Below, piece after piece: positions 14,931 through 54,467 of a stretch of DNA of 64,000 nt. The stretch's first letter is position 1, and every line of letters starts with the position of its first letter. The notes under the pieces are model-generated. The model was given only the letters and a program-made list of their open reading frames with translations, did not search any database and was not told the origin of the DNA. Source of the DNA: a virus. Taxonomy: Duplodnaviria > Caudoviricetes. A program made the translations under genes and the position numbers. Location of the stretch: IMG/VR virus record IMGVR_UViG_3300010355_000898, positions 64,001-128,000 of that record; one strand, given 5' to 3'.

Positions 14931-15127
14931 AACAGTTGTGGAGAATTTGGGCAAAAGCATTGGGTCAAAAGGATGGCTTGAATGATCAGGAGGCTGACAG
15001 GGTTGCAATGGTGAGGACAGCAATTGTTGTGTTCACAATGATCACAAATCTTCTCATCATTGTGAATGTTGCAAAACATTGGAATGATGGCACCCAAACT
15101 CATGCCGGAGCACATTGTGAAAATTAG
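14927..15127 (+). CDS. Small conserved-type phage membrane protein
   Basis: WRIWAKALG.K.G..D.EAD.VA.VRT pattern recalled from T4-like phages. Confidence 0.6.
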   Translation: MKQLWRIWAKALGQKDGLNDQEADRVAMVRTAIVVFTMITNLLIIVNVAKHWNDGTQTHAGAHCEN

Positions 15128-16903
15128 TACGTTAATCAACATGCTCAGGGAACAGTATCCTGAGCACAATTTTGAACGGTTTGTTGCGTCCACTCTGCCC
15201 GGTTGTGATGAGCACCATGCACTGTTGTACAGGATTGTTTTGGCAATTGAAAATTGTGGTGCAAGAACTGTTGAATTGTATACAAGTCCATCATGCAAAA
15301 AGGTTTAGTATGAATCCAGTCAAACAGATTGAACAATTCATCAAGATCCACATGTGGAAAATTGGTTATGATGAATACAGATTATTGCATGCATTGTTGG
15401 AGAAATTGAAGAGTGAACAGAAAATTGATGAAAGCAATGAAACATTTCACAGGTGATCAGAGATTGATTCATCTTGCTGAAATATTGAAACTTTGTGCAG
15501 AGCATGATTGCACCAGTGCAATCTTTATGCCAGATGAATTGTTGCAGACAGACATTGATTGGTTGATCAGCAATGGATATGATGTTGTTCATCATGTTGG
15601 AACAGTGTATTGTGGCGATCATTACATTGTGAGCCTGTGATGATTACGCCAACTGATCTTGAAAAGTTTAGAAGAATTTATGATGTACTTTGCAAGCACA
15701 ATCCCATGTTGTCTGCTAATGGACAACTTTTCACAAAAAATATTGTACGATTTCAAAATAGTTTGTACACATTCAGACCAAGACTGAAAATTTACAATAC
15801 TGGAACAATGGCATGCGCAGTGTGTGAAATGTATTGTCAACAGCAATCAACAGAAGAATTTTGGGGGTCATGGTATGATCAGAAGAAACTTATCGTATAG
15901 TTCACACAAAAATCTTTTGAGACTTGCAAAGTATTTGCATATGCGAAACGTTGACACAATGAGTTTTCGTCAATTGAGAGCGCTGTTGAAATGGTATTTT
16001 TCAAGAAGAGAGAAACGTGACAGGAATCTGATTGAGTGATGTTGAGTCAAAGAAATCATCAGAGATATTTGAACATGTTCAATATATTGGCCATGAGACA
16101 GGATGGTAACATATTGCAAAATGATTTCATACAAAATAGACTTGTATATTATGCAAATGGTAAAGAGCAGAGGGGATTGAGAATTGCCCTGATACGGAAT
16201 GGACATTGTCTCATTTCTGCGCCATTTGTGAAAGATTTGGGGACGCCATCACAAAAATATTGGTGGTGAACAATTCAATATTGTTTGATTACAATCAAAT
16301 GAAGAGAAATTGTATGTTGAACGTACCATTTGAAAAGGTTCACAAAGTATTCAAAATTTTAAGTGAACGTTATGATTGTGATTTTCCTGTTGATTGGGAA
16401 AGCAATCTTAGTGTAAATTGTGGTGACTATTATGACACAACAAATGTTGTTGAAAGAGTGATGAGGATTGGCATTTTGCAAAATGGTAAAGCGATAATCA
16501 TGTTTCCAAAGTCCACTGATAGTGAAGAACAGATCATATTTGAATATGATTACACAGCGGGATATTGACAGGAGAACAGTCTTGGTATGACAACAAAAGA
16601 TAAACATGATTATGAAATCACTTGGGAAAAATTGAACATTGTTGAAAAAATTGTTATGTCAACTGCAATTGTGTGGTTCCTGAGTGTAATGCCAATCATC
16701 ATTGTGATTGGTGTATTTGCACTGTTTCCAATGTTTTTGATTGCATGCGTGATTGTTCTATTCAGAAATCTTGCGAGTTTATTGCTGAATCAGTTCAACA
16801 AAGAACAATAAAATCATGTGTGAATAGATTTGGTCATGCATTGTGAATATCACAACAATGTGTGATAAATTGTCTATATCAACTGATAAAAGGTATAGCA
16901 AAA

Positions 16904-21762: not shown

Positions 21763-23210
21763 ATGAAGAAGCAGAAGAGTGATCTGATCAACAATTTGAA
21801 TATTTTTGCAACAGGTGTAGCGTCATTTGTATGTTCTTCTTTTGTTGCGCCAAACAGAATTCTTGTTGATGGGACGGGAATTAGGGTTTGGAAATATGAT
21901 GACATCATGAAATCATCGATGTGGAAACATGTTCACAATTGTTTAACAATTGGTGATGTTTTGAATTCATACAAAAAGTTTGGCAATTTTGATCACATTT
22001 TGTGTGTTCAATCTGCTTATGAAATTGATGAGGTATTCAAATATGCTTAAACAATTGGGAATTAATACTATAACTCTGTACAACAGTGGTGCATTCATCT
22101 GTTCACAACGTGGAATTGAAAGCCCAAACAGAATATCAAATTGTCCAGGTTTGTTTGGGCTTTCAATTGGGATTAAATCTTATTCAAAAGAGATCAAAAA
22201 CACATACATTGTATGGGATAATTTTGCAAAACGTTGGGAAAGATTTGAAGTGAATAATCTTTCACAAGCTTGTGCAGAATACAGAACATTGAACAATTTA
22301 TGACCAAATGCTATATGAAGATGTTCAGATCTGGTTGTTGGGATCTCTACACTATAGAACGTGGTGTTGTGAATAACAAAATTTTTGCAAGTTGTGATGA
22401 TATACGAATTTTTGTTGATGGGCACATCATGCAATTTGCTGATCTGTTGTCAATTGATAGCATTCAACGTCGTTTTGTGAACAATTGGTTCATAGTCCCA
22501 CACATGACCCAACTGCAAATATTGAAATTATACATAGAATTGTTGAACAGATGAAAACAGATTTCAAATTCTTCATACACCAAGATGGCGATTTCAGTTT
22601 TAGGGTCAATAACGTTCATACTCTATTCCCTTACAAAATTGTGAGAAGTTATAGATTGGGTTGGAAATACAAAATTTGGAGCTCTGAAGAACTTGATTGG
22701 GTTGACACAAATCAGAACATCAGTCAACTGATTGGGGATGTTATCAATGAGCAAATTTGAACACATGTCATTGTTGATCCATGATTGTGGTGATGTGTAT
22801 TTGATTGACAACAAGTGTGAAAAAATGTATTTTCACAAAAATTTTAGCGCAATTTGGTATGAACCTTGGGATCTACAATGGCAAATGGTGAATGATCAAT
22901 TCATTATGCAATCATCCAAAGTTGTTGGGTGGAATACACTTAAACTTGAACCCAAAATTGCGCTCAGGATGTACAAATTGGGAACATTGCAATGTGCATT
23001 GCCAGAAAAATTGTGATTGCTCTTGATGGTGCATACTATCTGGGATATGTAAATGGTGTTTCCATTCTTCATCATTGGCATTATTGTGGTGAATGGATAA
23101 CAACTGGTTGGAAGCTGAATGGATGTGATATCTTAACTGATGTAGAAATCATCAAGAGGATTGAATTGTGGCACAAAGGCACGTACAAGAACTATATTGA
23201 TGAAGAATAG
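21763..23210 (+). other. Run of six overlapping 70-95 aa ORFs sharing an N-terminal hydrophobic-x-hydrophobic-xxx-G hairpin
   Basis: LNIFATG, ITLYNSG, MKMFRSG, FFIHQDG, LLIHDCG, IVIALDG. Confidence 0.55.
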
Positions 23211-37307: not shown

Positions 37308-37577
37308 CTATTCATTTTTGCAAAATCTGTCAATCAGATTTCTGAATTCAACAATTGTGATATCACTACCAACATGGAGAATTTTTCCATTGTAAGCCCA
37401 TGTAACATCTTCACCATAACGCCAAACAGCAGGACCATTCACGTTGTGCAATGATCCACTCACATAATATTTCAACGTCCCATCAGCATACTGCATGGCA
37501 GGCAATTCATTCCTGTGTGGAACACCATTCAATTGAAATATTGTTGTCCCGTCCTGTGTTATGATGAGCTCATTCAC
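37308..37577 (-). CDS. Beta-hairpin repeat protein (G.LHR.DGPA type)
   Basis: GVPHRNELPA..YADG and GSLHNVNGPA repeats. Confidence 0.7.
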   Translation of the reverse strand: MNELIITQDGTTIFQLNGVPHRNELPAMQYADGTLKYYVSGSLHNVNGPAVWRYGEDVTWAYNGKILHVGSDITIVEFRNLIDRFCKNE

Positions 37578-37587
37578 TTATCAGTAA

Positions 37588-37941
37588 TTATCGAATATGA
37601 TGAAAATCACGATGAATTTTCATAATTCCCACAATTTTTGGGTACCATGTACGTTCAATTTCACCACCTGAAAAGTTAACCCTCAGAATGAAGAGATCAT
37701 TTTCAATTCCACATTCTCTGTAACGATACATTGTCGATTTATACAATGAAACAAAGTTGTGTGTTATTGCTGATTTCAATTTTCCAATTGAATCATAAAT
37801 TTTGGGTTTTGTTGATTGACAACCTCCAGAACTGAGCCACAAGCCATTCCGGAATTGACCCATCACAACATACAATTCATCAATCTTTTTGATCTTTGCT
37901 TTAGCTTTCATTTTGACAACTTTTCTTTCATTGGATACCAA
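37588..37941 (-). CDS. Hypothetical protein, paralog of 53937-54278
   Basis: Shared RNG.....G....P and SG....TWYPK.VG...I.R.F.H. Confidence 0.6.
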   Translation of the reverse strand: MVSNERKVVKMKAKAKIKKIDELYVVMGQFRNGLWLSSGGCQSTKPKIYDSIGKLKSAITHNFVSLYKSTMYRYRECGIENDLFILRVNFSGGEIERTWYPKIVGIMKIHRDFHHIR

Positions 37942-38282: not shown

Positions 38283-38770
38283 TCATTGTGTCAACATTGT
38301 CTCAAATTCCAAAATTGACATTGATGTCCTGTACAATTGGATCATTTTCTGATCACTGATATCATCAACAATGTAATAATAACCTTTACTGCACATGATG
38401 ATTTCATATTCATAACTCAATTTATGATACAACCAATATCGTCGCATTACACAATGATCATCAATACAAAATTCTTGTACATTTTTTGAAATGCATAAAC
38501 TTTTCAAGATTTTTTGTGCCACATTTTGGAAAATTTAAGTTCAAAATCATAACGATCTGTTGATGTTTTGAACATGTTCATCAATTCACTGAATTGAATA
38601 TGTGAGTGTTCAAATTTCCTATGTGTTTGTTCACAAAAGATATCATACATATACAATTGTGATTGTGCATCCCAAGTGCGTCGGATCACACATTCTTCAT
38701 TAATGGAAAATTCTTGCATGATTATTCCACTTCTATTGAGACGTTCTGACAGACAAATGTTTCTATACAT
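38283..38770 (-). CDS. Two tandem paralogous small proteins (38283-38522, 38504-38770)
   Basis: QEFCIDDHCVMRRYW vs QEFSINEECVIRRTW. Confidence 0.6.
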
Positions 38771-39478
38771 GTTGTTATGTTATCACCATTCACTCAACAA
38801 ATTCACCAAATACATTATCTGTAAATTGCTGGTCCAATTTTGCAATAGTCTTGTTGGAATTCAACATCATTATTGATGATATCTGACAAGATCTTTAATT
38901 CTCGCAAAATTGGTGATTTGGGAACAATGTGTGGCATATACTGTTCCAATCTTGTGCACCATGCAGCATAAACTCGTTGAGGCGTCATGAATGCAATCTT
39001 TTCCATATGTGTCATTGTTCTGTACACAATGCTGCATTCACCAGTGTTATATACAGTCATCATTATCATAAATTTGGTTCTGTCTCAAATGCATCAAGAA
39101 TTTGTAACATCTGTTCAAGATCAACAATTCTGTTCATTTTGATGCCCAAATTGAATGTAAACGTTCTGTACCTGACAGACACATGTCCACTTTCAAAGAA
39201 TTTAAATTTCAAAATGTTGCATTTTTCGTTCATTCAATGATTTTACAACATCATTGTACGATTTGCAATAAAAATTACCATATCTTGGATTGAGTATTCC
39301 AGAACTATAACTGATTCTGAACATTTGTTTTTGAATACATTCTGGGCCAACACTAATTCTAAAATTGTGTGCTGTAAAATTGCCATCATAAATTTTGATG
39401 TTGAGGATAGTGAGTGAGTGTGAAATCAACAATTCTTTCACAACTTTTACATTTCCATTGAGTATATCACTGAGCAGA

Positions 39479-39652
39479 TCAATTATTGTCATCAGATGTC
39501 ATTCTTTCAATGACACAACAACTAACATAACCATTCACATGTATTCGCAATCCAAAATTGAGCTTTTGTGACAGTGCATTATATGTTGTTTCAACGAATT
39601 GATAGTTTTCGCCAATTGCAAACTTAATTCTGCAATATTTTTCATATGTCAT
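39479..39652 (-). CDS. MTY-family miniprotein (57 aa, not in ORF track)
   Basis: MTYEKYCRI...GLRIHVNGYV, translated by hand. Confidence 0.65.
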   Translation of the reverse strand: MTYEKYCRIKFAIGENYQFVETTYNALSQKLNFGLRIHVNGYVSCCVIERMTSDDNN

Positions 39653-39714
39653 TTGACATGACCAATTTCATTATTGTTGCATATGTGTGCACTGTCTGTA
39701 ATCATTTAATGTCA

Positions 39715-40422
39715 TTATGTGAGATAATTGTTGAATACAAAATTTCTCAACATTTGTTGGGGATTGAAGATTTCATGAACTGTTTTTGTTGTGTCAGTCA
39801 ATATGTTCTTCACAGATCGTTTCCTTTCAATCATGCTTTTGTGTATTGATGTTTCAGATCTGATGATTGCATAATCATCCACAGCAGTGATCATGATGTG
39901 TCCATTCAACAATTTCCACGCAAAATTTGGCATCAAAGTTTGGAATACAATATCACCCAAATTTGAGAACAACATTATTGGAGTGATAATGCACACTAAT
40001 CTGACAGTGACTGCAATCACATATTGACAATTGATCAATTTTGCACTCAAAATGATTGGACCAAACATCAATGTTGACAACAGCAACGTTCCAAACAATT
40101 TTGTTATATAACACTGTTTTGGCACAATGTGTTCTGGAATATCAACAACTGATTTTCCACTTGCAATAGCAATTGTTGCCATAAGATCAATAATCAACAT
40201 GATAACCCACAACACTGGTATCCATTTGTGTGGAAACAAAAATCTGTCCCAGAACAGAAAACTTGTCAAGAGGTGCACAATCAACATTGTGTTGTTGACG
40301 ATAATGATGTTGAAAATTGAATAACTGATTGGCGCAATTTTTGTGATTGTTCTATTTTTCATTCTATTGTCCCGAAAAATGTGCAGTTCAAGGTTTTGAA
40401 GGCTCAGTTGATGAATTACCAT
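39715..40422 (-). CDS. Multi-pass membrane protein
   Basis: Four or more hydrophobic segments. Confidence 0.55.
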   Translation of the reverse strand: MVIHQLSLQNLELHIFRDNRMKNRTITKIAPISYSIFNIIIVNNTMLIVHLLTSFLFWDRFLFPHKWIPVLWVIMLIIDLMATIAIASGKSVVDIPEHIVPKQCYITKLFGTLLLSTLMFGPIILSAKLINCQYVIAVTVRLVCIITPIMLFSNLGDIVFQTLMPNFAWKLLNGHIMITAVDDYAIIRSETSIHKSMIERKRSVKNILTDTTKTVHEIFNPQQMLRNFVFNNYLT

Positions 40423-43135
40423 TAATGAATATGATCAATTTTCTGTCTTCTGGTTGTAATGGCAATACATAGAGTTGTTTCAATTTTGATTCTTCAATAC
40501 TTGTGTTTTCACGAGCACTTATGCTCATCCAAATTCTTCTGAATTGTTCATAGGTCATATTAATCCTGTGTATACATTTATTGTGTGCATGTTGAAGCAT
40601 TCCCATTACTGAACAACATTAAATGTCGCATTTTAGGATTGTACGATTCAAAATAGGCAGTTTCTATGTCATTGATTGGTATTGCATTATGTTGACCTCG
40701 CAAATTTATGATCAACCAAATTCTTCTGAATTGTCTATATGTCATACAAATTGTTCTAATCTAATGTTGAACCCAAACCAATTTCACCCTCTGAATGAAT
40801 CAGCAGAGTGTATGTGTGCAATTCATTCTCAACAATGTCAATCATGTGTTTGTAAGATATACGTCTTACCCAATTCTGTTCACAAGTGAGACGTTTCCGG
40901 AAACACACAATCAATTTTGAATTCATCAACTGCTTATCCATACAATGCCACATGCTGATATACTGAGATACATTCCATTGTGATTATCAATCTTATTGTA
41001 TTCATACAATGAATCATCGGTGTCAACATAATGTTGTTCTGTTCGACCACCAATAATCATGCAAATATTGCAAAATTTTCTGTATGTCATGATCGCTTAT
41101 CAATGATATATTGATACGCCATTGAGTCCAGTGCTCCAATCATACTGATTGCGCAAGCACCACTATACTTTATCATCAAACTTGGTTCCCAACACTCAAA
41201 AATTGCATTAGGATTGTTCTCAAACAGTTGAATACAATTATTAATCGTAACCCTATCTTGTGAGGAATAGCGATTCAAATCTGGATATTTGTCAACAACT
41301 GCAAGCAATTTTTTGACTATTGATAACAGCAATTTTCCTGTGTATGTTTTTGTTTCCATTTTATGTTCTCAAACTGTTGCAACATCAATTGAACCATTCT
41401 CATATATCACCAATGATATTCTATATGAAATATGACGTTGAAGAATAAATTGCGCTCTCATCACATAATAGTTTATTGAATATTTGGGCTCAGCAATTCT
41501 CTGAAGTGGCGCAGGATTTTTGTGCACTTTCAACCAATCAGCATACAGCAATAAACATTTGGCAATTTTTGTTAATGTCAATTTATGTGTCATTATGAAT
41601 ATCGATTATACCTGAATTTTCAATAACAAGAGACCATGTGCATACACCAGAACGAATACAAATATTTTCTTGACGTTTAGCATACTTTGTCATGAAATTC
41701 AAATCATAAATCAAATTTCCAGTGTATGATGGCATGCAATTGTGAGCAATCAGTTTTTTAATGCACCTGATGAATGCATACACTTGACGCAATTCTTCTG
41801 TTCTTTGTTGTTCAGAGTTCAAATCCATATGAAATTCTTCCTGAAAAATGGATATTCAGTGACCAATGGGCTGACTGAGGCACCATGAAAACTGGACGTG
41901 TTTCAACAAGTTTCTTTTTTAAGATTATGATCTGATTGATTAGGTGCCAAGAATCATCATAATCTGTTCTTGTTCTCAATTCGAGCAATCTTATGATGTG
42001 TCTGATTTCATCAAAAGTGTTGTGCATTTCTGAACCCGATATTACCACAATTGGTGATTGTCAACCATAAATCAGTTCCAGTGTTTGCATACTTGAGTGT
42101 GTAAACGAGTGATTGTAAATGATCAATTTCATTATCAATCTTCAGTATGCCAAATATTTCTTGCAATATTCCATGTTCAACATTGTGCAATCTGTGTTTG
42201 AAACATTGTGTCAATTTTTGTGCACTATTCATATTCATATCAATAGAGAAAAAATACCAAATCATCATTCATTCTGTACTTTAAACACATTATCATTAAT
42301 GGTTGTTCATTTGGCTTTACGCATTTGTTTTTATGCAACCATGATGAATATATTGATTGCAATCCATCATGACGATCAATGAGAATTGATAAAAGTCTGT
42401 TCATTTTTTGTATTTGATTATTTGACATCACAATTTATTGAGCATTCTGATGCGAAGATCACCCACACGATCTATTGCAAGAGAATAATTGTATACATCA
42501 TATTGTGCTGTCATCCAGTATTCATACAACAATGAATTGTGTCCAGATTCACTTAAACGAATTCTGAAACAATTCTTAATGTGTTCACCTGATTCAGGAA
42601 TATTCATTCAAATCTCCAACCAAATTTTCCATTATGATCAAAGACAATTGATTTTGAGTCAGTTTTTTGACGCAATTCATAACAGTGTTTAATTCTGTTC
42701 AACTGTTCTGCAAGAAGCATACAATGATCATATCACAAGATAATATCAATTTCACAATCAAAGGTAACAATCCCAATTGATATATCCTGATTGATAAATT
42801 TTCAACATATAACTTTTATGTTGTATTGAATGTTCCTGAATGTACTGAATTTCATTCTGAACACCATACATCATCCAATCCATGTGGTGTCTGTCAATGT
42901 TCATTGCATGACACAATTTGGCACAATTCATGATTTTTGTCAATTGTTTAATCTGATTCATTACAAATTCCAATCAATTGATCCAATTGAAAAAATGAGT
43001 AAATGTAATCTGTTATCATCAATATGATAATTTTCAAGCTGTTTCATGAGATGATGTAAATTTGTTTTTAAATAGTAATCATCATTTTCATTCATGATGC
43101 GAATGGTAAAACAATTCATCAATTTTTGTCTGTTT

Positions 43136-43266
43136 CTATTTGACACAAAAAGTTATCTTCCCATCATTATGCACAATAATGTTGCTGATGTTCATTGTTT
43201 TTTGACTGTATTCACAAAAACAATTCTTTCCATAAAGTTTACGTCCATCTGTTCACAACAGATCAT
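43136..43266 (-). pseudogene. Frameshifted array member
   Basis: N-terminal frame stops just after an A6 run; the hairpin motif IIVHNDGKITF is in another frame. Confidence 0.45.
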
Positions 43267-44213
43267 TGAGTGCCCAAGATGCGCCACCATTGCAAAAAAA
43301 TTTCAATTCAATTTGGCTGTCAAAATCTTTATATGTTATGCTTGAATTGGGATCATATTCACTCAAAATGTGTGCAATTTTTTCATAATACCATCTGTCA
43401 CAATCATTCCTGGAATTCAGGATTTTTAGACAATTTGACACAATTTCATACTTTGATTTCATCTTTTTGATCATAAAGAACACTTACACATTTAAAATCA
43501 ATTGATCCATCACACAATATCAAAAGTTTGAAATCATATCTGGAAATGTCACCAACAATCACTTGCCAATTGATTATGTTCTTTGACCACCGACAATAGT
43601 AGTCAGCATTTTTTCTCTTGGAACCTTTGTTGTCACCACCATTTGTTGCACGAACAGTGAACATTTTGTACAATTTCATTTGTGTATTGTTGATTATGTC
43701 AACCATTATGGTTCTTCCATTTTATTTTGATGCAAACCAATGGTTCCTGATGTTCTAATTGATAGACACAAATTTGTCCACTCTGTTCCATAATCAATCA
43801 TGAACAGAATGCTCACAATCATCAATCTGTACTGATTGCGTTCATAAATATATTTTTGTTGAGAATATCTCAATTCAGCACACTTGAGAAGTTTTGCAAG
43901 TTGTACGTCAATATTATTCATAATACCACCACAAACCTCCATTGTGATTGATTGTCAATACGTAATTGTTTTGCGGCAGAGATCCAGAAATAAATCCAGA
44001 AATTATGAGGGTTGACAAATGTTCAATCATTATTGTGTATTCATCACGCCCTTTTGGATTGCTGATATGTTCAAGTCTGCGCCCAAAACAGTTCCTGATC
44101 TTTGACAGAATTACAATCTTTTGTTCTGATGACATGCTTTCATTCACGTGGATATCCACCTGTATGCAATTGACGTATACTGTATTTGTCAAGATCATAA
44201 AATTTTACATGAT

Positions 44214-44257
44214 AGTCAATCAATCCAGATCGACCAGTCAATCAATCCAGATCGACC
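44214..44257. repeat. Perfect 22-bp tandem duplication
   Basis: agtcaatcaatccagatcgacc x2. Confidence 0.95.
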
Positions 44258-44603
44258 AATCATCAATACAAAATTGTCACTGTGATCATATTTCACAATG
44301 TTATTAAACCTTCCTCGCAATAATTCACGAGTATATTCTGATTTTGTATTCAGGATTCTGATCTTGAACATCCGATGCAATCTATCACATGATTCTGACA
44401 TTTGTTATACCATTCCAACTGTTTGGTGTCTGAAATCAATACTACTATCATTGCGGATGAGCAATCTGTATTCAGAATTGGGATCCCACCGAACATATTC
44501 TGCTAACCAAGCTAACATCATTTCAGTTCCTTCATTGCTTACAGGCCACGCCCTGATTGTGAGCATTCTGTGAATTCTTTTAGTTGAGTTTGTCATACAA
44601 TGT

Positions 44604-44832
44604 TCATGTCATTACAAAATCTATTTTGACAACGCCTGACCATTTAACATAGAGTGCTACTATCCTGATTGATTTATCATATGCCAACTTCAGCATCAGC
44701 AAGAACTCTGTCAATACGCATAAGCAAATTTGCATAATGGTAACGTTCCTGAAGTTTTGTTGAATCAAATCGTTCGTATATATGAACTCTAATCCTTTTG
44801 AGTTTTGCAATGTTGTCTGGATGTTGCATCAT
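44604..44832 (-). pseudogene. Frameshifted array member
   Basis: MMQHPDNIAKLKRIRVHIYER... stops at 44677; ALYVKWSGVVKI continues in another frame. Confidence 0.55.
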
Positions 44833-45226
44833 CTGCGCCATTTGATCTTTCCATCACTGTGTATATTGAGCACAAATTTGTCAGATTTGTCTGCATGAAA
44901 TAGCAGAATGGATAGATAAACATTCCGTTCATAAACTCCATTCACAGATCTCATCCTGAGCATTCTCATCATTCTCCTATATGATTCTGAACCCTGCATC
45001 AGTTAAATGTACAACATGACAGTGCATGTTGCACTGCACTCAAGAATGTCCCAGAACAATTCTGCAAATTGCGATGTTGTCCAATCAATATGTGGGCAGA
45101 ACAGTTATCCTGCAGTGTCCTGGAATGATTGGGATGGATGTTTGTACACGGTGTTGTTAACCGATCTCCAGATGTGTATGGGTTCCTGAAAGGATTCAGA
45201 ACGCGAGAGAACATTTTCGTATACAA

Positions 45227-45553
45227 TCACCAACTGATCACAATCGTGATTGAAGATTTGTTGTCAAGATCAATTTTGGAAATTTCTGTTATCCCATAGC
45301 CAAGTCCAATGAGATGATCACAGATCAATTTGTACAGTGATTTGTTGCACACATATGTATCATACACAGTGTACGTGACATTGTTTGTGGTTGATTTTCT
45401 GATTGCATCAGATATGTTGGCAATGTTGTGCTCAATCAACTCTTCCAACTGTTTGTGATTGATTTCATTCAATTTTGTCTTCATTTCTTTTGCAACTGGC
45501 AATGCATGTTTCAGCGTCATCCTGTCAAAAATTTCTTGAATCTGTTCTTCCAT
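45227..45553 (-). CDS. Hypothetical protein
   Basis: 108 aa ORF with GAGG SD and upstream promoter-like motif. Confidence 0.6.
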   Translation of the reverse strand: MEEQIQEIFDRMTLKHALPVAKEMKTKLNEINHKQLEELIEHNIANISDAIRKSTTNNVTYTVYDTYVCNKSLYKLICDHLIGLGYGITEISKIDLDNKSSITIVISW

Positions 45554-46555
45554 CTCAAAACCTCTCTCTCAATTGTGATTTTAAACTGTACTCAGAGTCT
45601 GTTGCACCACATGATGAGAAATGTTAACATGTTCATGTCATCAGTGATCAGAAATGGTCATGAACGCGGGCAAAACAGGTCCAGAATGATCAGAGAACAG
45701 AGACCGGTGCAATGAGACAAAATTTTTCATCATCATTCGGTGCAGACTATACTATCTTATAGCGGCAATTGCCAAAGCTATCTGCCGTCAGAACAGATTG
45801 ATATCAACAGAAGGACATCAGCAGACCACATCTCTGAACAGATTGTAAATGTGGGCGTAAAAGATATCGGTAACAAAAATTTGGGTCAATTTGCAAATGT
45901 TCTGTCACATGCAGAGAACACGATTCACGTTGATGGGCCAAACAGTATTGAAGATATCATAACATCTGTTGCATCGAAAACACAACCAGACGTATGCCTA
46001 TTGGGTCCAATGGACAGTGCAAAATACAGAATTCATAAACGTGACCATTCCAACGAGAAGATACCAATCATCATTGAGGATAACAGCACAGTGTATGCTA
46101 TGCTATAGCAAACTCTGCACCGATGGCACTGCATATGTTGGCAGATTGGGAACATTGCAGTTGTGGGTCCAGAATGACAGTGTATTTGAAATTGATGAAG
46201 ATTGTGGACTGTTCCAGGCAGTTGGTTATGATGTTAGCAGAGTACGTTTCAGATCACGTGTAAAGATTGAGTGCACAGATCTGAGTTCATGGACAAGGAT
46301 CATCTTTGATTCAACAGATGATTCAGCAGAAACAGATCATGATTGAGAACAGTGAAAGAGAGAGGTGTTCAGAACCGGTGCAGGTTCATTGAGTTGCCAG
46401 ATCTTGTGCACAGTGGCAGAATGGTGCACATTTCAATCTGGGGAGGGCTGTGACGTGGTGCGCACTCCAGGAGGATTGGGAGGGAATTCAGGTATGCAAA
46501 ATTTGGTTGATGGGTGTGGGGATGACGGGAACCACTGCCGGGGTGTCGTGGAGTG

Positions 46556-46758
46556 AAAATGGGGGTTGGGACGGTCTACGAGGGTGGAACAGTGTATCTT
46601 GCCCCATTTTTTCCCGGTGTTTTTCACTGATGCATCATCGATGGCCTTATTTTACCTTCTGTTTACATCCACTCTGTATTCAAAGATATTCTCGCGTGAT
46701 TTCTCATATGTCCCACCCTCGTAGACTGAACATCCGCAGCATCAGTGAAAAACACCGG
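46556..46758. repeat. Interleaved inverted repeats in a GC-rich non-coding island
   Basis: 46572-46591 pairs with 46709-46728 (18/20); 46614-46633 pairs with 46739-46758 (20/20); 46556-46564 pairs with 46602-46610. Confidence 0.9.
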
Positions 46759-46759
46759 C

Positions 46760-46791
46760 CCGGGTCTCCGTTGCCCCGTATCTGGGACTGA
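46760..46791 (-). repeat. 32-bp junction repeat, copy 1
   Basis: 29/32 identical to 48119-48150; 22-bp core gttgccccgtatctgggactga exact. Confidence 0.9.
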
Positions 46792-47865
46792 GCGTAATGA
46801 TTCACAATTCAGCCAACATCACACCGAGCAAACCCATCAGTCCAAATGTACAACGTCCAACAGCAACAGTACTCTTCAAGTGTACAATTCTCATGAAATT
46901 TCAACCGTCTTTTCCTGTTAATCCTGCAATACCTGTTGTATGACATACTGCTGCTCCCAGCTCGCAATTAGGTTTTTATTTTTTACCTTCTGGGACAACT
47001 CCACCATAACCATTATTGCATATGAGCAATTGCCAACAGTGCTCTCCAAAAATATGGATTCCACAGTGTCCCAATTTTCTTACATTGTGAATCCGGATAT
47101 ATTGACCATATGTCACCGTTGATGTTCTCCCATCATTCCAATCACTGCACACAGTGATCTGCACAAACTCCGGGAATCTTCTCCAGTTCCCCTGTAGCCG
47201 GAGAGTGTCTCACAACCGGCTCACATATCTTCTTGACAATTTGGAACACACTGTGCACATAAAAAATGCGTCCTGTGCCACGGGACGGATAAGATTGACA
47301 CATCCACACTGATAAAATTGCAATCTGATGACATTGTCAACCTGTTGGATGATGGGTAGTGCTGGTGAGACATGTCCTGGATTCCTCATCCTGAGGATGG
47401 CTGTCAATCTTGTGACATGTTCCTGTTCAGTTGCAGTCAGCGCTGACATTTGGGATCTCCCTTGATGTAGAGTCTGCGTGCAACAAGATCAAGGTCTGAT
47501 CTGACAATGGCAACCGCTGCACAACCACACCTGTTCACTTCCAATATTGGAATGTAATGGATATCCGATATCAAGACAAGGTCCACTCTGTCAATTTGGG
47601 ATCCTGGTTTCCTCTGTTCGAGCAGAGTGATCAGTCTACCAATGTGCTGTTCAGTTTGCATGGATATCTCTCATGGCAAGATGATTGATCTGATTGTTGG
47701 TGAACTGTCTGCACGCTGTGCCATCAAGCCTCAAACAGACCGTGCACAGATGATGTTTGCAGAGTTCTGTGAATTTGTGTTCATCAAATTCGAGAAGAAA
47801 ATGGCGACCTTTTTCTGATCTATGCTTGAGAATATTGCCAATGTTTATGAACTGTCTGTAAGTCA

Positions 47866-48084
47866 TCATTTTTTCATGTACACTCTGTACACTCTGCTTA
47901 CAGAGCCATTTTGACCAATCTTAATGTACCATTCAACATTGTGTGAACCATTAATGGCCACGTGGCATGCAGAAATCATCACAATGATTGATGTATATAC
48001 CTTTGTTCAAAGGGCGCTGATTCAAGATCTCTCCAATTCTGCAATGAATTCACATCATAATATGATGCACTGTTTGTAGGTCAT
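47866..48084 (-). pseudogene. MTY-family pseudogene broken over several frames
   Basis: MTYKQ / CRIGEILNQRP / WYIKIGQNGSVSRV separated by frameshifts and stops. Confidence 0.7.
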
Positions 48085-48118
48085 CAATCATTCCATTGTG
48101 ATCAGCATATATGCCTAT

Positions 48119-48150
48119 CCGGAACTCAGTTGCCCCGTATCTGGGACTGA
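48119..48150 (-). repeat. 32-bp junction repeat, copy 2
   Basis: Begins 7 nt after the stop of 48158-48331. Confidence 0.9.
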
Positions 48151-49078
48151 AACATTGTCAGCGTTTGAATGTACATTCTCTGTCAACATCTCCATTACAA
48201 TTGATCTGAATGTACCAATCCCTTTGCGCGCCGAATATATCCTGTGTACAATCATAATAGTAATCTACCCCCTGATCTGGACGACGATTTCTCAATGTCT
48301 CACCAATGTTCCTGTACTGTCTGTATGTCATTCTTTTTCATCGCAAAAAATCAATTGCATGTCTGTAAACAAAACCATCCTCGCGTACTCTGATGCACCA
48401 ACAGAAACGATTGAAATATCGTCTTTCAACACCGTTCTTCAACATTGCTGCAATGTAAGCAGTTTTCTGCTGTGTCGGATTCATCTTAGCACCAATTCTG
48501 CAATACTGTTCATAGGTCATTGTGTGCTCTCCCACCATGTAACCCTGTACACAGTTCCAAGCCAATGAATCCTGATATGCCACGGACTTTCATTAATGAA
48601 AAGTTTCAGATCACAATCTTGGTATGGAACAGAACCATCTGCTATTTCTGAACGCTGATTCAGGATCTCTCCAATTCTGCAATATTGATTGTACGTCATA
48701 AAATCACTTTTTGGGATCTGTTTCCCAGAGATCTCTTGGTACTCGTATTACATTACCACAATTTTTGATCCTTAAAATCAAATTGTGTTGGTCGAATTCA
48801 GTCATGGTACCTAGGTACTGTGTGTATTCACTTGTGTATTCACAGAATGCATCACAACGTGCATTCAGAATTTTTCCTATGCGATTATATTGCCCAAGTG
48901 TCATCAAGAGTTCTCCACGCATCTCCACATTTGTGAACAACAAGCACCAATTTTTGGTAATTGAAATCAGCAATGTTAAAACGTTGATCCACAAGCTTCA
49001 CATGGCGGCGTCTGTTGATGAGTACACCCAACCTTACAAAATGTTCATAAACAGCCCGGGACTGCAACAATTCTCGGT

Positions 49079-49444
49079 TCATGTCATCCTATCCAATCGT
49101 ATCCAATGGCCACCATCCTGTTGGATGGTAAGAACCGTTTCATACTCATCCGAATTGGCTTACACCATTTTCAGACATTGTTGTTTCACGCCCATGACAC
49201 AATTTATGCCATTTGCACCAAATCTTGTAGGATGCTTTCATAATCTGTTGTTCTCAAAGATTGAAGTTGACAGTACCATTATTGGATACCCTGAGCATCA
49301 ATTCATCGCCATGTGCATAGATCCGGGCACGCTGATAAATTTTGAATTCATGTTCAGATATATATTGCGGTCAAGTTGCCAAACAGAACATCCATTTCTT
49401 CTGTACATTGCAACCTTAATGTTGTGATATTGGTCAGCATTCAC
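49079..49444 (-). pseudogene. Two consecutive frameshifted array members (49079-49241, 49254-49444)
   Basis: C-terminal motifs VLTIQQDGGHW and LMLRVSNNGTVNF are out of frame with their starts. Confidence 0.55.
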
Positions 49445-49452
49445 AGATTTTC

Positions 49453-49929
49453 TCAACCATTTCTATGGTGTGATACTCGGCCAACAGTTCTGTATATGCA
49501 CAAATTGTATATTGCTCCGCCAACATCACACACATAACCACAATTTTGGAGTGCAATTGCTAAATTCTTGGCCAATTGTGCACTGATATAGATGATATCA
49601 TTGTGTTTCAGATTGCACAAACAGAATTCTGTGTTGACATCATCCGTTTCAATTTGTGTTGTGTCATCAACACAGTTAACATCTGCATATGTTGCAATGT
49701 TGCCATCAAGCTCTTCATCACCATCCTTGGCTACCCATTCAGAATCACAATTTGGGATCCATAAACCTTCAAAGAAGGTGAATATACACAATCCTGTTGC
49801 ATGGGAATGAATCATTCTGAATTTGGGAATAGAACGATTCTCTGGAACACGATCGGTCAATTCTCCATCACTGATGATGTGTCCATTATAACAATTATGC
49901 AAATGAATATTTGGTACGGTTATCAGCAT
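49453..49929 (-). CDS. Hypothetical protein
   Basis: 158 aa ORF. Confidence 0.5.
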   Translation of the reverse strand: MLITVPNIHLHNCYNGHIISDGELTDRVPENRSIPKFRMIHSHATGLCIFTFFEGLWIPNCDSEWVAKDGDEELDGNIATYADVNCVDDTTQIETDDVNTEFCLCNLKHNDIIYISAQLAKNLAIALQNCGYVCDVGGAIYNLCIYRTVGRVSHHRNG

Positions 49930-50142: not shown

Positions 50143-50553
50143 TCATTGGACATCAATGAACTTCCTGATGATCCCTGCCCAGCCAGCCTGGGCAAAGGTG
50201 TCCATCATCCTCTTGGCACCATGGGGATTTGCACTGTGAACAATGATGTCCCCAAATTGGGCCCGGGATCTGTTGAGTGTCAGCCACAGGGCTGCATCAC
50301 ATCCATTGAGAGGGCGGGGCTCAGATTGAAAACTGTGAACAGTGGGCGGAATGCCAACATCTGCATCCCTGAAATCTCCAAGGTCATGATCCAGGGCAAC
50401 TATGTCAAAATGGGTGCCCTTCAAGATTTCACTCAGGAAATGAAAGTATGTGTAACAGTGAACAATCCTGCACCCAGGCCATAGGTGGTCAGCACTCTTA
50501 TGACGAGCAGGACAATCATCAAGGATGATCACATTGCAAATTTTGCTGTTCAT
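50143..50553 (-). CDS. Cyclic-phosphate-processing receiver domain protein
   Basis: ILDD, VALDHDLG, GCDAALWL, IIVHSANPHGA..M. Confidence 0.85.
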   Translation of the reverse strand: MNSKICNVIILDDCPARHKSADHLWPGCRIVHCYTYFHFLSEILKGTHFDIVALDHDLGDFRDADVGIPPTVHSFQSEPRPLNGCDAALWLTLNRSRAQFGDIIVHSANPHGAKRMMDTFAQAGWAGIIRKFIDVQ

Positions 50554-51400: not shown

Positions 51401-52585
51401 TCACTTCTTCTTGGCAGAAGCTCCAAAGAACCCAGGAACATTGGCAACCTGCCCGATTCCCTTCACGCCCTTCTGGACACCCATAGTCTGCAGAATCGCC
51501 CCGGCCATCTCCTTCATCAGCTTGGCCTGCAGGGCAGGCTTCTTCACCACAGCACTCTGCAACTTGGTCCAAGCAGCAATCCTGTGCTCACCGGTGAGGA
51601 AATCCATGAAGGACTTCACGTTCTCAATCTGGGCAGGGGTCAGATCATCAAGGGTGCCAAGAGCCTGGGCAGTCTTCTCAATCAGGATGTTCTGTCGCTC
51701 AGCACCCAGGCCATTGAGCTTCTTCTGGATCTTCTTCCAACGATTGATGACATCCTCACCACTGATCTGCTGTTCCCATTCAGCAGCGAATGCAGCAAAG
51801 GCGGTTGCAGCTTGCAGGCCAACGAAGCCCCGGGTCAGGTGATAGATTTCATCACGATTTCCCTTGGAATCTTCAAGGGAGCCGGCCAGGGTGAGGGCTC
51901 GATTGACACGCTCCCAAGAACGTCGACTGGGTCCCTTCTCAGTTGGATCACCGCCCTTCACTGGATCAAGCCACTTGTTGTTCTGGTTGATGAAGTCAAT
52001 CATCACAGGATGGATCTCACCACCAAACTCATTGTGAGGACGCTTTGCCCAAGTGATCCAGTCATTGACAGTGGGCTCAAGATCAACAACCCAGAATCGA
52101 TCAAGCAGTGCAATGTCCATCTCGTTGACATTGTAGTCAGAGGTGTGATTGATTGCAGCAAAAACCCGAGTCTCAGGATGGAGCTTGTGACCATTCAGTT
52201 CACGATCAAGAACCATCTGGAATGCACCCTGCATGACCTCGGTCGTTGCACGGTTGATCTCGTCAAGGAGAACATAGCAGGGCTCATCACAGGCAAGCTT
52301 GACCCAGTCAGGAGGATTGAAGGTCGTGCTTGACCCATTTTCACCCTCAACAATCGAGGGAAGACCAATCAGATCACCCTCAGACATCTGGGAGAGACGA
52401 CGATCAATGAAATGCTTGATGGGCTTCTTCCCATCCTTGATGCGCTGGCTGTTCTCAAGCGTCAGGAGATATCGGAACACGGTGGACTTTCCAATTCCGT
52501 GGACACCCCGAGCCAGTACAGAAACCTCAACAGGAAGCTTCAGCAAACAATTCACAAAAGTTTCAATGGACATGCTGTTCGACAT
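51401..52585 (-). CDS. MoxR-like AAA+ ATPase
   Basis: GVHGIGKS, LSQMSEGDLIGLP, PPDW, LLDEINRA, AAIN, DIALLDRF, PSRRSW. Confidence 0.88.
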   Translation of the reverse strand: MSNSMSIETFVNCLLKLPVEVSVLARGVHGIGKSTVFRYLLTLENSQRIKDGKKPIKHFIDRRLSQMSEGDLIGLPSIVEGENGSSTTFNPPDWVKLACDEPCYVLLDEINRATTEVMQGAFQMVLDRELNGHKLHPETRVFAAINHTSDYNVNEMDIALLDRFWVVDLEPTVNDWITWAKRPHNEFGGEIHPVMIDFINQNNKWLDPVKGGDPTEKGPSRRSWERVNRALTLAGSLEDSKGNRDEIYHLTRGFVGLQAATAFAAFAAEWEQQISGEDVINRWKKIQKKLNGLGAERQNILIEKTAQALGTLDDLTPAQIENVKSFMDFLTGEHRIAAWTKLQSAVVKKPALQAKLMKEMAGAILQTMGVQKGVKGIGQVANVPGFFGASAKKK

Positions 52586-52973: not shown

Positions 52974-53132
52974 ATGACATACAAACAATTCATCAATCTT
53001 GCCAAAAAATTTGGGTACAGTCGATCACATTCACGGTTTTCAGAAAGTGAATATCTTCGTTACCAATGGACATTGGCAATCTATGCTAGCAGTTTTGATC
53101 AAAACGTTTTGACATACACTCGGATTCTGTGA
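52974..53132 (+). CDS. Dispersed MTY-family miniprotein (52 aa)
   Basis: MTYKQFINL...QWTLAIY. Confidence 0.55.
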   Translation: MTYKQFINLAKKFGYSRSHSRFSESEYLRYQWTLAIYASSFDQNVLTYTRIL

Positions 53133-53191: not shown

Positions 53192-53959
53192 ATGGCACGC
53201 ACAAAGTCAAGTCTTCCGAAGTCTGAAGTTGCTCAGGGCACCAACATTCTTGATGTGAAGATTCCTCCACAATTGCGAAAGCGCATTGATCTTGGGATTG
53301 ATTGGTTCACTGAAGCACTCGGTGGGCAGGGAATGGTTCCATCCAATGTCATGATGCTCACAGGAACTCCTGGAGCGGGCAAGAGCACTCTGTTTCGTCA
53401 ATTGGCTGACAGCATCACTGCATCTGGAAACATTGCAATCTACAACTCTGGTGAGGAGAGCCCGTATCAGGTTGCTATGGCAGCAGAGCGAATGAAATTG
53501 AAGAATGGTTTCAAGATGTCACAGGAACAGCAGGCATCTGAGCTGATCCGGTTTGCTCGCAAGGTTCAGAAGGCAAACCCCAAGAAGACTGTTTTCATTC
53601 TGCAGGATAGCATTCAGACACTTGATGACGGGAAGTACTCAAATGGTGTCACCAACAGCTCAACCGCATTGCGATGCACTGAGATGCTTGCTGAGTGGGC
53701 CAAGGAAACCTATGGCATTGTTCTGTTCATCGGCCAGGTGAACAAGGATGGGCAGTTCTCTGGGAAGAATGGGATCAAGCACTGGATTGATGCTCATGCT
53801 CACATCTACATTGATGGCAAGAAGAGCAGTGATACGTATGGTGAGCGTCTATTTGAGGTTTCCAAGAACCGTTGGGGTGTCACTGGGAAAACTTTCATTG
53901 TTGGCATTCAGGATACAGGGCTCTACTTGAAGGGGTATGTTGAATATGTCAAGAGCTAA
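53192..53959 (+). CDS. RadA/Sms-like RecA-family ATPase (core only)
   Basis: GTPGAGKST, SGEES, DSIQT, GQVNKDG, KNRWG; no Zn finger or Lon-like domain. Confidence 0.85.
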   Translation: MARTKSSLPKSEVAQGTNILDVKIPPQLRKRIDLGIDWFTEALGGQGMVPSNVMMLTGTPGAGKSTLFRQLADSITASGNIAIYNSGEESPYQVAMAAERMKLKNGFKMSQEQQASELIRFARKVQKANPKKTVFILQDSIQTLDDGKYSNGVTNSSTALRCTEMLAEWAKETYGIVLFIGQVNKDGQFSGKNGIKHWIDAHAHIYIDGKKSSDTYGERLFEVSKNRWGVTGKTFIVGIQDTGLYLKGYVEYVKS

Positions 53960-54278
53960 GAATGTGCTCCCCGTTGGGGAGATCACAGTGCACTTTGCCC
54001 GTTACAGGAACGGGATGTTCTTCAATGGAGGCAACAATTCCTCAACGCCCATTCTGTTCAACACAATTGAAGCATTGTACGGAGAACTCCGGAGACTGTT
54101 CACTCGTGTTACAGAGTACAGATACCAGAATGGGAAAACAGTTCAGTTCACGAGGAAGTTCAGAGAGAATGATCTGTACGTTTACAATTGCAAACTTTCT
54201 GGTGAGATGACCAAGACTTGGTACCCAAAGGTTGTTGGCACATTGCGAATTCCAAGAAACTTTAAACATCAGGGATGA
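53937..54278 (+). CDS. Hypothetical protein, paralog of 37588-37941
   Basis: TWYPKVVGTLRIPRNFKH. Confidence 0.6.
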   Translation: MLNMSRAKNVLPVGEITVHFARYRNGMFFNGGNNSSTPILFNTIEALYGELRRLFTRVTEYRYQNGKTVQFTRKFRENDLYVYNCKLSGEMTKTWYPKVVGTLRIPRNFKHQG

Positions 54279-54284
54279 TCTGTT

Positions 54285-54467
54285 GTGCACACTATGCACA
54301 CTGTGAGAATAAGACAGAATGGCATTGTAACTTTTCATGATGAGGATGGTCGATTGCACCGATCCAATGGTCCTGCTATCATCAGACCTGATGGCGATAA
54401 TGGATGGTGCTTTCAGGGAATTGTTTACACTGAAAATGATTACTGGAAAATTGTGAATCGTCAATAA
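54285..54467 (+). CDS. G.LHR.DGPA repeat protein
   Basis: GRLHRSNGPAIIRPDG. Confidence 0.65.
   Translation: MHTMHTVRIRQNGIVTFHDEDGRLHRSNGPAIIRPDGDNGWCFQGIVYTENDYWKIVNRQ

Follow-up and report, generated by a model that had tools for sequence, protein, structure and literature searches.

Why does a T4-type jumbo phage carry about 35 genes for very small proteins, placed head to tail in two blocks, and what might their products do? The question is raised by a window of 64,000 nucleotides (nt), bases 64001-128000 of the 269,547-base IMG/VR virus record IMGVR_UViG_3300010355_000898, which is estimated to be 74% complete. Two minus-strand blocks of this window, 39479-44999 (array 1) and 46809-49456 (array 2), are tiled by open reading frames (ORFs) of 37-90 amino acids (aa), as had been described in an earlier note made from the DNA sequence. 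Here we show that these ORFs form a gene family beyond chance, with constraint at the protein level, restriction to one lineage and turnover from strain to strain. Coordinates are those of the window, also for features past its end, and single members are named by one coordinate.

The genome encodes a T4-type prohead protease (Peptidase_S77, PF03420; 103 bits) and a Gp23-type major capsid protein (PF07068; 205 bits), the closest capsids being those of uncultured huge phages and then of T4-like phages of Flavobacterium, Microcystis and Rhodothermus (36-49% identity); the Flavobacterium phages, nearest among cultured ones, stand at 46%. When the whole region was compared with 50,697 phage records by megablast, no match was obtained. 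Near-identical DNA is present in activated-sludge, wastewater, river and groundwater runs from 11 studies. For comparison, the related contigs L002, L003, L005 and L011 were used together with long contigs that represent close relatives in runs X2 (wastewater) and X8 (groundwater); X16 was also used, for one site. The GC-skew switch and the ORFs place coding on the minus strand from ~37 kb to 52.6 kb.

Definition of the family

Junctions between the array genes are mostly overlaps or tiny gaps, from -29 to +10 nt (-1, -4, -8, -11, -13 and -17 among them), and adjacent genes lie in differing frames. The array stops (25 TGA, 7 TAA and 1 TAG) are used similarly to those of the long ORFs of the genome (90, 47 and 14, respectively). 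Recoding of stop codons was rejected on both grounds; since neighbours are in different frames, an alternative genetic code cannot merge the genes, and an apparent 163-aa fusion (P0017) exists only when TGA is read as W. Further copies were found at 52974 within the window and at 69533 and 69766 past its end. The genes had been thought invisible to standard ORF calling, which is incorrect, as most members already exist as called proteins in public collections.

The C-terminal pattern h-x-h-x-x-x-G-x-h (h, hydrophobic) is present in 22 of 70 short minus-strand ORFs at 41-51 kb and in 91 of 2679 in the rest of the genome, an enrichment of 31% versus 3.4% (Fisher p = 7e-15). When each candidate was scored with a leave-one-out profile hidden Markov model (HMM), 23 of 34 were outscored by at most one of 1965 background ORFs, and the lone background ORF above them is a genuine extra member, the one at 69533. 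A profile enlarged with paralogues from relatives scored 35 genomic ORFs at 20-62 bits, with the best reversed decoy at 9.8; those above the decoy comprise 31 in the two arrays, one at 52974 (plus strand) and the two at 69533 and 69766. Because most of the ORFs scored by the enlarged profile were in its training set, the leave-one-out result serves as the independent test. The profile search, which the earlier note had proposed as a check, thus came out in favour of a family. Candidates without support of their own in the leave-one-out test are 44677, 41087, 42604, 46809, 42240, 41583, 47437 and 47210, three of which are explained by damage.

Paralogues retain 9-36% identity to the reference member, and pairwise phmmer searches among members detect few pairs. 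MTY-type N-termini were counted at 12 positions in the window (39479, 40388, 40578, 40926, 46809, 46976, 47651, 48158, 48338, 48517, 48704 and 52974) and at two past it; the earlier note had counted about 13, 52974 included. With a profile built from the MTY members alone, 7 of the 24 non-MTY members scored within the top 1% of background (p = 3e-9), and in the reverse test the figure was 9 of 24 (p = 1e-12); this cross-recognition comes chiefly through the C-terminal hairpin. The two groups are therefore linked well above chance as groups. Common descent of the MTY and non-MTY groups is the simplest reading, because architecture, motif and location are shared; it is not provable for about half of the individual members.

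Structures were predicted with AlphaFold from the family alignment. The model of member 48158-48331 (predicted local distance difference test score, pLDDT, 68) has helices at residues 3-15 and 24-32 and strands at 37-43 and 49-55, and that of member 44216-44401 (pLDDT 80, more exactly 79.9) has helices at 2-18 and 22-41 and strands at 44-48 and 54-58. The MTY and the non-MTY model thus share one predicted topology, two helices followed by a beta-hairpin, and bear out the helix and C-terminal hairpin around a nearly unalignable middle that had been read from the sequence. Prediction of a homodimer for member 44216 gave a score of 0.02, which speaks neither for nor against a dimer.

No relationship to a known protein family emerged from the searches performed. 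Ten members scanned against PHROGs v4 gave no match below E = 0.1, and the same number scanned against Pfam-A gave nothing near a gathering score (best 14.4 bits versus a cut-off of 27). The family profile found nothing among PDB sequences, and Foldseek of the models against PDB and BFVD found nothing at E <= 0.001. The best Z in a wide VIA-align search was 5.5, mostly to helical hairpins and within the tool's stated noise; a feature search of the ESM Atlas gave no usable match, and the Atlas shape search gave TM values of 0.47-0.58 to unrelated families, which is uninformative for a 61-residue model. A word-indexed protein search returned near-identical relatives only. An exhaustive profile search of 1.84 billion cluster representatives gave 26 matches, among which the short ones were this phage's own proteins or those of very close relatives only and the long ones were beta-propeller repeat proteins (P0014, P0023 and others) carrying WVLKLDxxGNIxW hairpins in their blades. 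The propeller matches cover profile positions ~40-62 only, about 20 residues, 4-6 times per chain; the motif is therefore a generic tight-turn beta-hairpin and not evidence of homology. On the evidence of these searches, we take the family to be undescribed and confined to a single phage lineage.

The propeller matches, made through these hairpins, and the shortness of many of the ORFs are also what might suggest that the arrays are not genes, being either chance ORFs in AT-rich DNA or the decayed remains of a long repeat protein such as a beta-propeller. We regard this as extremely improbable. The resemblance is confined to the short repeated segment, each phage unit has a start and a stop of its own, with frames that differ between units, and an N-terminal helix that is without counterpart in a propeller blade. 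Moreover, the ORFs tile one strand, are retained in relatives with conserved boundaries, and show constraint that depends on codon position and protein segment.

Selection and turnover between strains

Orthologues of the array genes stay open in three to four related contigs (L002, L003, L005 and L011). Comparison of the window with L002 yielded 42.5 synonymous and 98.5 non-synonymous differences for the family, which corresponds to a ratio of non-synonymous to synonymous substitution rates (dN/dS) of 0.57, and the synonymous excess is significant against neutrality (binomial p = 0.003). By segment, dN/dS was 0.18 in the hairpin, 0.57 in the N-terminal helix, 0.90 in the middle and 0.56 in the tail, the non-synonymous rates of hairpin and middle being different (p = 0.008). 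Among the MTY genes, conservation starts exactly at the ATG, third codon positions vary with the residues retained, and the upstream DNA is not conserved. The hairpin Gly is encoded by all four Gly codons and lies 13 to 214+ nt from the next start; a by-product of ribosome-binding (Shine-Dalgarno) sites was ruled out as the source of the motif because of this codon variety and variable distance.

For the neighbouring enzymes, namely an AAA+ ATPase, a RecA-like ATPase and a cREC receiver protein, dN/dS was 0-0.02, with dS reaching 0.24, and the other ORFs of unknown function in the region range from 0.13 to 0.79. For paralogue and allele pairs within the family the values were 0.24-0.60, with a single value of 1.05. 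On these sequence comparisons the family is about 30 times less constrained than the core genes, which shows relaxed purifying selection with cassette turnover and does not demonstrate positive selection. The dN/dS analysis suggested in the earlier note did not show the diversifying selection proposed there, overall, in the middle segment and in all pairs other than the single one above 1.

Flanking genes share 92-97% DNA identity with L002 and L003, and the arrays between them differ. Members 43706-43253 and 47437/47210 are missing from L002, and for 48158, 47866 and 47651 close counterparts are lacking in both L002 and L003, the stretch being taken up there by different MTY paralogues. L002 carries a tandem pair (78% aa identity, dS 0.46, dN/dS 0.33) where the window has only 48517, L005 carries yet another set of members, and relatives have one extra member upstream of the orthologue of 44829. 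In L003 a hybrid gene joins the N-terminus of 43446 to the body of 42961, with the ~0.6 kb between them gone, as is expected when unequal crossing-over falls within the conserved first helix. Larger losses were seen in two natural strains: a joint from 39939 to 41121 in the wastewater contig removes four members and part of a membrane-protein gene, and a joint from 42418 to 43137 in the groundwater contig, at which 9 nt fit both sides, removes four members. The comparative evidence on how the arrays change is thus unusually direct, including chimeras, whole-cassette deletions, tandem duplicates, in-frame loss of the middle and frameshift decay. Accordion-like behaviour, as put forward in the earlier note, is real in the sense of turnover, as different members, a tandem duplicate, a chimera and whole-gene deletions were all observed; the near-identical copies that an accordion would leave were not seen.

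Losses and weak constraint of this kind would also be produced by a near-neutral set of ORFs, a self-propagating filler spread by tandem duplication and unequal recombination in a permissive, headful-packaging jumbo genome, in which most copies have little function and are decaying. The dN/dS of 0.90 in the middle and 0.57 in the family, set against 0-0.02 in the neighbouring enzymes, fits such an account, and so does the damage in the window, where two copies are frameshifted, one is truncated, one has an internal deletion and one is left as a 31-nt ghost; natural strains, moreover, lose 4-6 members at once. Jumbo-phage genomes have been proposed to grow by tandem duplication (PMC5646251), and a cyanophage is reported to have lost an ORFan region spontaneously (PMC4503421). 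We nevertheless consider this explanation unlikely. Purifying selection on the hairpin is clear (0.18), and the scaffold motif has persisted although overall identity is down to 9-36%, which requires that many copies have been under selection over the long term; most orthologues are open in relatives, and paralogue pairs with saturated dS still have dN/dS of 0.24-0.5.

Expression and possible role

The members are soluble and mildly basic (median pI 8.3 versus 6.2 for long ORFs) and are richer in Arg, Cys and His than the long ORFs of the genome, Arg making up 7.5% versus 3.9%. This basic, Arg-rich composition and the conserved Arg at the end of helix 1 would suit small nucleic-acid-binding or regulatory proteins, either Cro-like helix-plus-hairpin modules or modulators of transcription or translation, whose expansion would tune phage or host expression. 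Lambda Cro is among the weak Foldseek rows, aligned over 28-30 residues (E = 2-5), and for the zinc-ribbon expansion of phage G, which has ~35 copies, a function as transcription factors or in DNA binding was suggested by Iyer et al. (PMC7824862). A role of this type is, in our estimate, quite improbable: none of the fold matches reaches significance, searches of Pfam, PHROGs and PDB detected neither a helix-turn-helix nor any other DNA-binding family, net charge among members ranges from -2 to +7, and there is no obvious set of cognate sites for thirty-odd regulators with variable surfaces.

The expression signals were analysed in the window. A promoter-like class, GTGAAH-N17-TAnnnT, occurs 17 times versus 2.35 expected, usually with a TG extension, on both strands (for example at 16843, 24020, 42755, 52641, 53129, 54453, 58290 and 61038); the sites often end ~6 nt before an ATG, which suggests leaderless mRNAs. 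Sites of this class precede the AAA+ ATPase gene (52641) and the RecA-like ATPase gene (53129), and only 2-3 lie within the arrays. Scans for the sigma-70 consensus and for terminators did not exceed shuffled expectation. Contigs of two metatranscriptome libraries from one study cover parts of both arrays at a depth like that of the neighbouring ATPase gene, with DNA carry-over possible, and leave other parts of the arrays uncovered; they provide a weak hint of transcription, and the gaps are taken as evidence in neither direction.

The candidate late-type box ATAnTTA precedes no member and as a bare pattern is not enriched in the window (12 found versus 16 expected). This result bears on a possible analogy with the internal proteins of T4, according to which the N-terminal helix MTYxQ[YF]xxI would be a capsid-targeting sequence and the proteins would be packed in the prohead and injected as anti-restriction effectors. 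T-even internal proteins are highly diverse defence proteins with only the targeting sequence in common (PMC3012670), the genome has the T4-type protease and capsid genes noted above, and the starts are similar, T4 IPII and IPIII beginning MKTYQEFIAEA, member 47651 MTYRQFINI and member 52974 MTYKQFINL. That likeness is, however, a 6-residue motif and beyond statistical testing. The MTY start is found in only ~14 of ~35 members and lacks a conserved (L/I)-x-E protease site behind it, in the models the helix belongs to the fold, and, as stated, none of the genes has a late-type box. Better leader look-alikes are present past the window, where two adjacent, otherwise unrelated plus-strand proteins (85738-85989 and 85986-86759) begin MKIKISQLKQIIKEE and MKLSAKQLRTLIRE, respectively, a candidate cleavable capsid-targeting leader. 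Packaging of the family in the head is accordingly judged to be very unlikely.

The reading that we favour, tentatively and at somewhat less than an even chance, is that of a lineage-specific, non-structural family, co-transcribed and reshuffled by recombination, which supplies binders or inhibitors of host or defence proteins. The family of small soluble proteins (~45-90 aa) would belong to a hyperplastic non-structural region of a T4-type jumbo phage. Its scaffold would be made up of the hairpin, h-x-h-x-x-x-G-x-h-x-aromatic, together with helix 1 and its conserved terminal Arg, and the second helix and the loops would form a variable surface. The genes would be co-transcribed leftward as long, translationally coupled operons, with internal promoter-like sites assigned to the GTGAA-N17-TAnnnT class common to the neighbouring ATPase genes. 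Unequal recombination between paralogues, tandem duplication, in-frame deletion and decay would change the repertoire, and near-identical phages would come to differ in their sets. In the infected cell the products may act as stoichiometric binders or inhibitors of host proteins, of defence or of housekeeping, with one target per paralogue.

This role is suggested by the size, position and turnover of the genes, by expression signals common to replication-type genes, and by the precedent of T4-type small accessory genes that inhibit host proteins, TifA (PMC9391042) and gene 55.2 (PMC4396842). An anti-defence or host-takeover role is what we infer from context, and expression timing, binding and any target are likewise inferred only. 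A more specific version, which reasons by analogy with antigen variation, is improbable in our view: the arrays would then be a repertoire of miniprotein binders on one scaffold, with a variable surface for each target, reshuffled at the conserved 5' and 3' gene ends and serving as counter-defence cassettes.

Several observations weigh against the binder or inhibitor role. The dN/dS is below 1 almost everywhere, and an arms race is not demonstrated; several copies are frameshifted, truncated or reduced to ghosts in this assembly, so that weak selection fits as well as rapid adaptive turnover. The Arg-rich, basic composition would be equally at home in proteins that bind nucleic acids. Finally, hhalign between the two subgroups covers only 16 hairpin columns, with a probability of 14% (P = 0.002).

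Whatever the role, the family occupies ~8 kb of the genome and retains its scaffold at 9-36% identity, without relatives outside one lineage or a known fold match. If its members do bind host or defence proteins, they would represent ~35 natural variants, and more across strains, of a 55-aa binding scaffold, accompanied by natural gain-and-loss data from wastewater, river and groundwater populations.

Gene content and comparison with known systems

The members of both arrays lie on the minus strand and are given here from right to left. Array 2 opens with a member (49254-49456) split by a frameshift in this assembly, its N-terminal and hairpin parts being found in different frames by three-frame translation; the copy is intact in L002 (8989-9270 of that contig), and 2 nt at 49358 are missing from the contigs of X2, X8 and X16. 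The first intact gene, 48885-49082 (65 aa), ranked first of 1965 in the leave-one-out test and is also recognised by the MTY-only profile. The leave-one-out profile likewise supports 48704-48904 (66 aa, MTL start), 48517-48699 (60 aa, MTY start; two diverged tandem copies in L002), 48338-48520 (60 aa, MTY start) and 48158-48331 (57 aa, MTY start; the first AlphaFold model). A 31-nt remnant at 48015-48045 on the same strand, the ghost of a lost copy, is 97% identical to the 5' part of gene 48517. Next are a truncated member of 37 aa with the hairpin half only (47866-47979; leave-one-out and MTY-only profiles) and a 71-aa member with an MTY start (47651-47866; leave-one-out and enlarged profiles). 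Two weak members, 47437-47661 (74 aa) and 47210-47449 (79 aa), are both missing from L002 and L003, the former being present in L005. The enlarged profile recognises the last two genes, 46976-47116 (46 aa, GTG start, beginning MTYGQY) and the short 46809-46946 (45 aa, MSY start), with which array 2 ends.

The spacer between the arrays (45554-46808) does not belong to the family and has plus-strand ORFs at 45740-46346. The stretch 46358-46946 is GC-richer and 92% conserved in relatives. Within it, a perfect inverted repeat of 20 bp (arms 46614-46633 and 46739-46758, separated by 105 nt) is nested in another of 18 bp. Among the RNA-library contigs, depth is greatest over this stretch (18.4), and the ORFs called there look non-protein-like. 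No Rfam match was obtained for 46358-46946, and when the conserved spacer was folded (46350-46810) the z values were -0.4 and +0.2, with no overall structure signal. A 32-nt direct repeat, 91% identical, at 46760-46791 and 48119-48150 lies 8-18 nt 3' of two family genes; its copies bracket a 1.36 kb block of six members and may mark a segmental duplication or a recombination boundary.

Array 1 begins with 44829-44999 (56 aa, leave-one-out support) and a member split in this assembly by a 1-nt insertion near 44677 (44604-44841), which is intact in L002 with 78 aa. Member 44405-44596 (63 aa) is supported by phmmer and by the leave-one-out profile, and 44216-44401 (61 aa), the second to be modelled with AlphaFold, has a perfect 22-nt tandem duplication at its 3' end. 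Supported by the leave-one-out profile are 43914-44135 (73 aa), 43706-43921 (71 aa; missing from L002), 43253-43474 (73 aa; missing from L002 and L003), 42961-43146 (61 aa, GTG start) and 42758-42961 (67 aa); among these lies 43446-43706 (86 aa), the N-terminus of which is fused in L003 to the body of the 42961 paralogue. A promoter-like site inside the array on the same strand, GTGAAA-N17-TATGAT at 42727-42755, is 6 nt before the ATG at 42720 of a 38-aa member (42604-42720), an in-frame deletion form of the 61-aa gene of relatives with helix and hairpin retained.

Further to the left, 42428-42607 (59 aa) has leave-one-out support, 42240-42428 (62 aa) is a doubtful member that lacks the hairpin motif and is weak in that test, and 42011-42238 (75 aa; database protein P0007) and 41812-42027 (71 aa) are again supported by it. 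The weak member 41583-41828 (81 aa) has the hairpin and is recognised by the enlarged profile, and 41369-41593 (74 aa) by both the leave-one-out and the enlarged profile. Membership of the neighbouring 90-aa gene at 41087-41359 was unsupported in the leave-one-out test. The array continues with 40926-41090 (54 aa, MTY start) and 40756-40953 (65 aa), both with leave-one-out support, 40578-40745 (55 aa, MTY start), which has a GTGAAA-N18-TAGATT site upstream at 40758-40787, and 40388-40558 (56 aa, MTY start, leave-one-out support). It is interrupted by a gene outside the family for a hydrophobic, probably membrane protein of 235 aa (39715-40422, minus strand), partly deleted in the wastewater strain, and ends with 39479-39652 (57 aa, MTY start, leave-one-out support). 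The dispersed member at 52974-53132 on the plus strand (52 aa, MTY start) has two further members beside it in relatives.

The same G-turn hairpin motif also occurs at other positions, such as the N-terminus, in small proteins encoded at 39066-39233 and 39202-39492 (minus strand) and at 22732-23016 and 15066-15308 (plus strand); their scores are close to the family threshold or under it, and they may be distantly related to the family. The surroundings of the arrays include a cREC_REC receiver-domain protein (50143-50553, minus strand), an AAA_5 (MoxR-like) ATPase (51401-52585, minus strand) and a phage GroEL (31585-33177, plus strand; PHROG 5725, E = 4e-145). Paralogous proteins of ~110 aa with a common C-terminal TWYPK-[IV]-VG...I-x-R-x-F-x-H motif flank the variable region from either side on opposite strands (37588-37911, minus; 53937-54278, plus). 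A second small paralogous family forms an adjoining pair on the minus strand (38283-38522 and 38504-38770) with the motif QEF-x-I-x-x-x-CV-x-RR-x-W, ~79% identity to relatives and dN/dS of 0.4-0.6. Proteins of ~60 aa at 37308-37496 (minus strand) and 54285-54467 (plus strand) have MORN-like G-x-x-H-x-x-NGPA repeats, with no Pfam match for the former. No tRNA genes were found in the window, and no Rfam families at gathering thresholds; the search of 45500-47300 gave two rows only, both at chance level.

Among known systems, beta-propeller repeat proteins have a tight G-turn beta-hairpin of the same kind and score against the family profile, but they have several blades per chain, whereas each phage protein has a single hairpin behind two helices and is encoded by a separate gene. 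This likeness appears to be one of a structural element and not of family membership. Gene accordions, for example the amplification of poxvirus K3L, involve recent, near-identical amplification of one gene under acute selection, unlike the old, diverged paralogues with dN/dS below 1 found here. When the arrays were examined for such an amplification, one L002 tandem duplicate was found, at 78% aa identity and dS 0.46, and copy number varied by deletion. Amplification of T4 tifA against ToxIN (PMC9391042) is similar in that copy number changes by recombination in an accessory region. The T-even internal proteins IPI, IPII and IPIII (PMC3012670) resemble the family in having diverse bodies behind a short N-terminus (TYQEFI in T4, TYRQFI here), and differ in that here there is no conserved protease site or late box, the motif is present in under half of the members and the proteins are much smaller.

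Variable ORFan blocks are described in T4-like genomes (PMC4122927, PMC2839356), and the present locus resembles these hyperplastic regions: the phage has a head module of T4 type, its small ORFans form a block flanked by conserved enzyme genes, and very close relatives (here L002, L003, L005, L011, X2 and X8) differ by insertions, deletions and replacements. Classical hyperplastic regions, in contrast, consist of unrelated ORFans bounded by promoter and stem-loop cassettes (PeSLs), whereas the arrays contain one paralogous family with genes overlapping start to stop and no more than two or three promoter-like sites, and it appears to be at the conserved ends of the coding sequences themselves that recombination takes place. 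In jumbo phages, large tandem arrays of small paralogues have been described (PMC5646251, PMC7824862), and those of the phage G / 121Q type correspond in genome size (>200 kb) and in having ~35 head-to-tail copies of one lineage-specific small family. Their copies are 'very similar', the result of recent duplication, in contrast to the 9-36% identity found here; unlike the array of phage G, that of the present phage encodes no zinc ribbon and has a predicted fold of two helices and a beta-hairpin, and strains with 92-97% identity in the flanks have differing repertoires. The locus adds a well-documented case to a recurring and unexplained pattern, large arrays of small proteins in jumbo phages, and the family is an undescribed instance of the described jumbo-phage paralogue arrays and T4-type hyperplastic regions.

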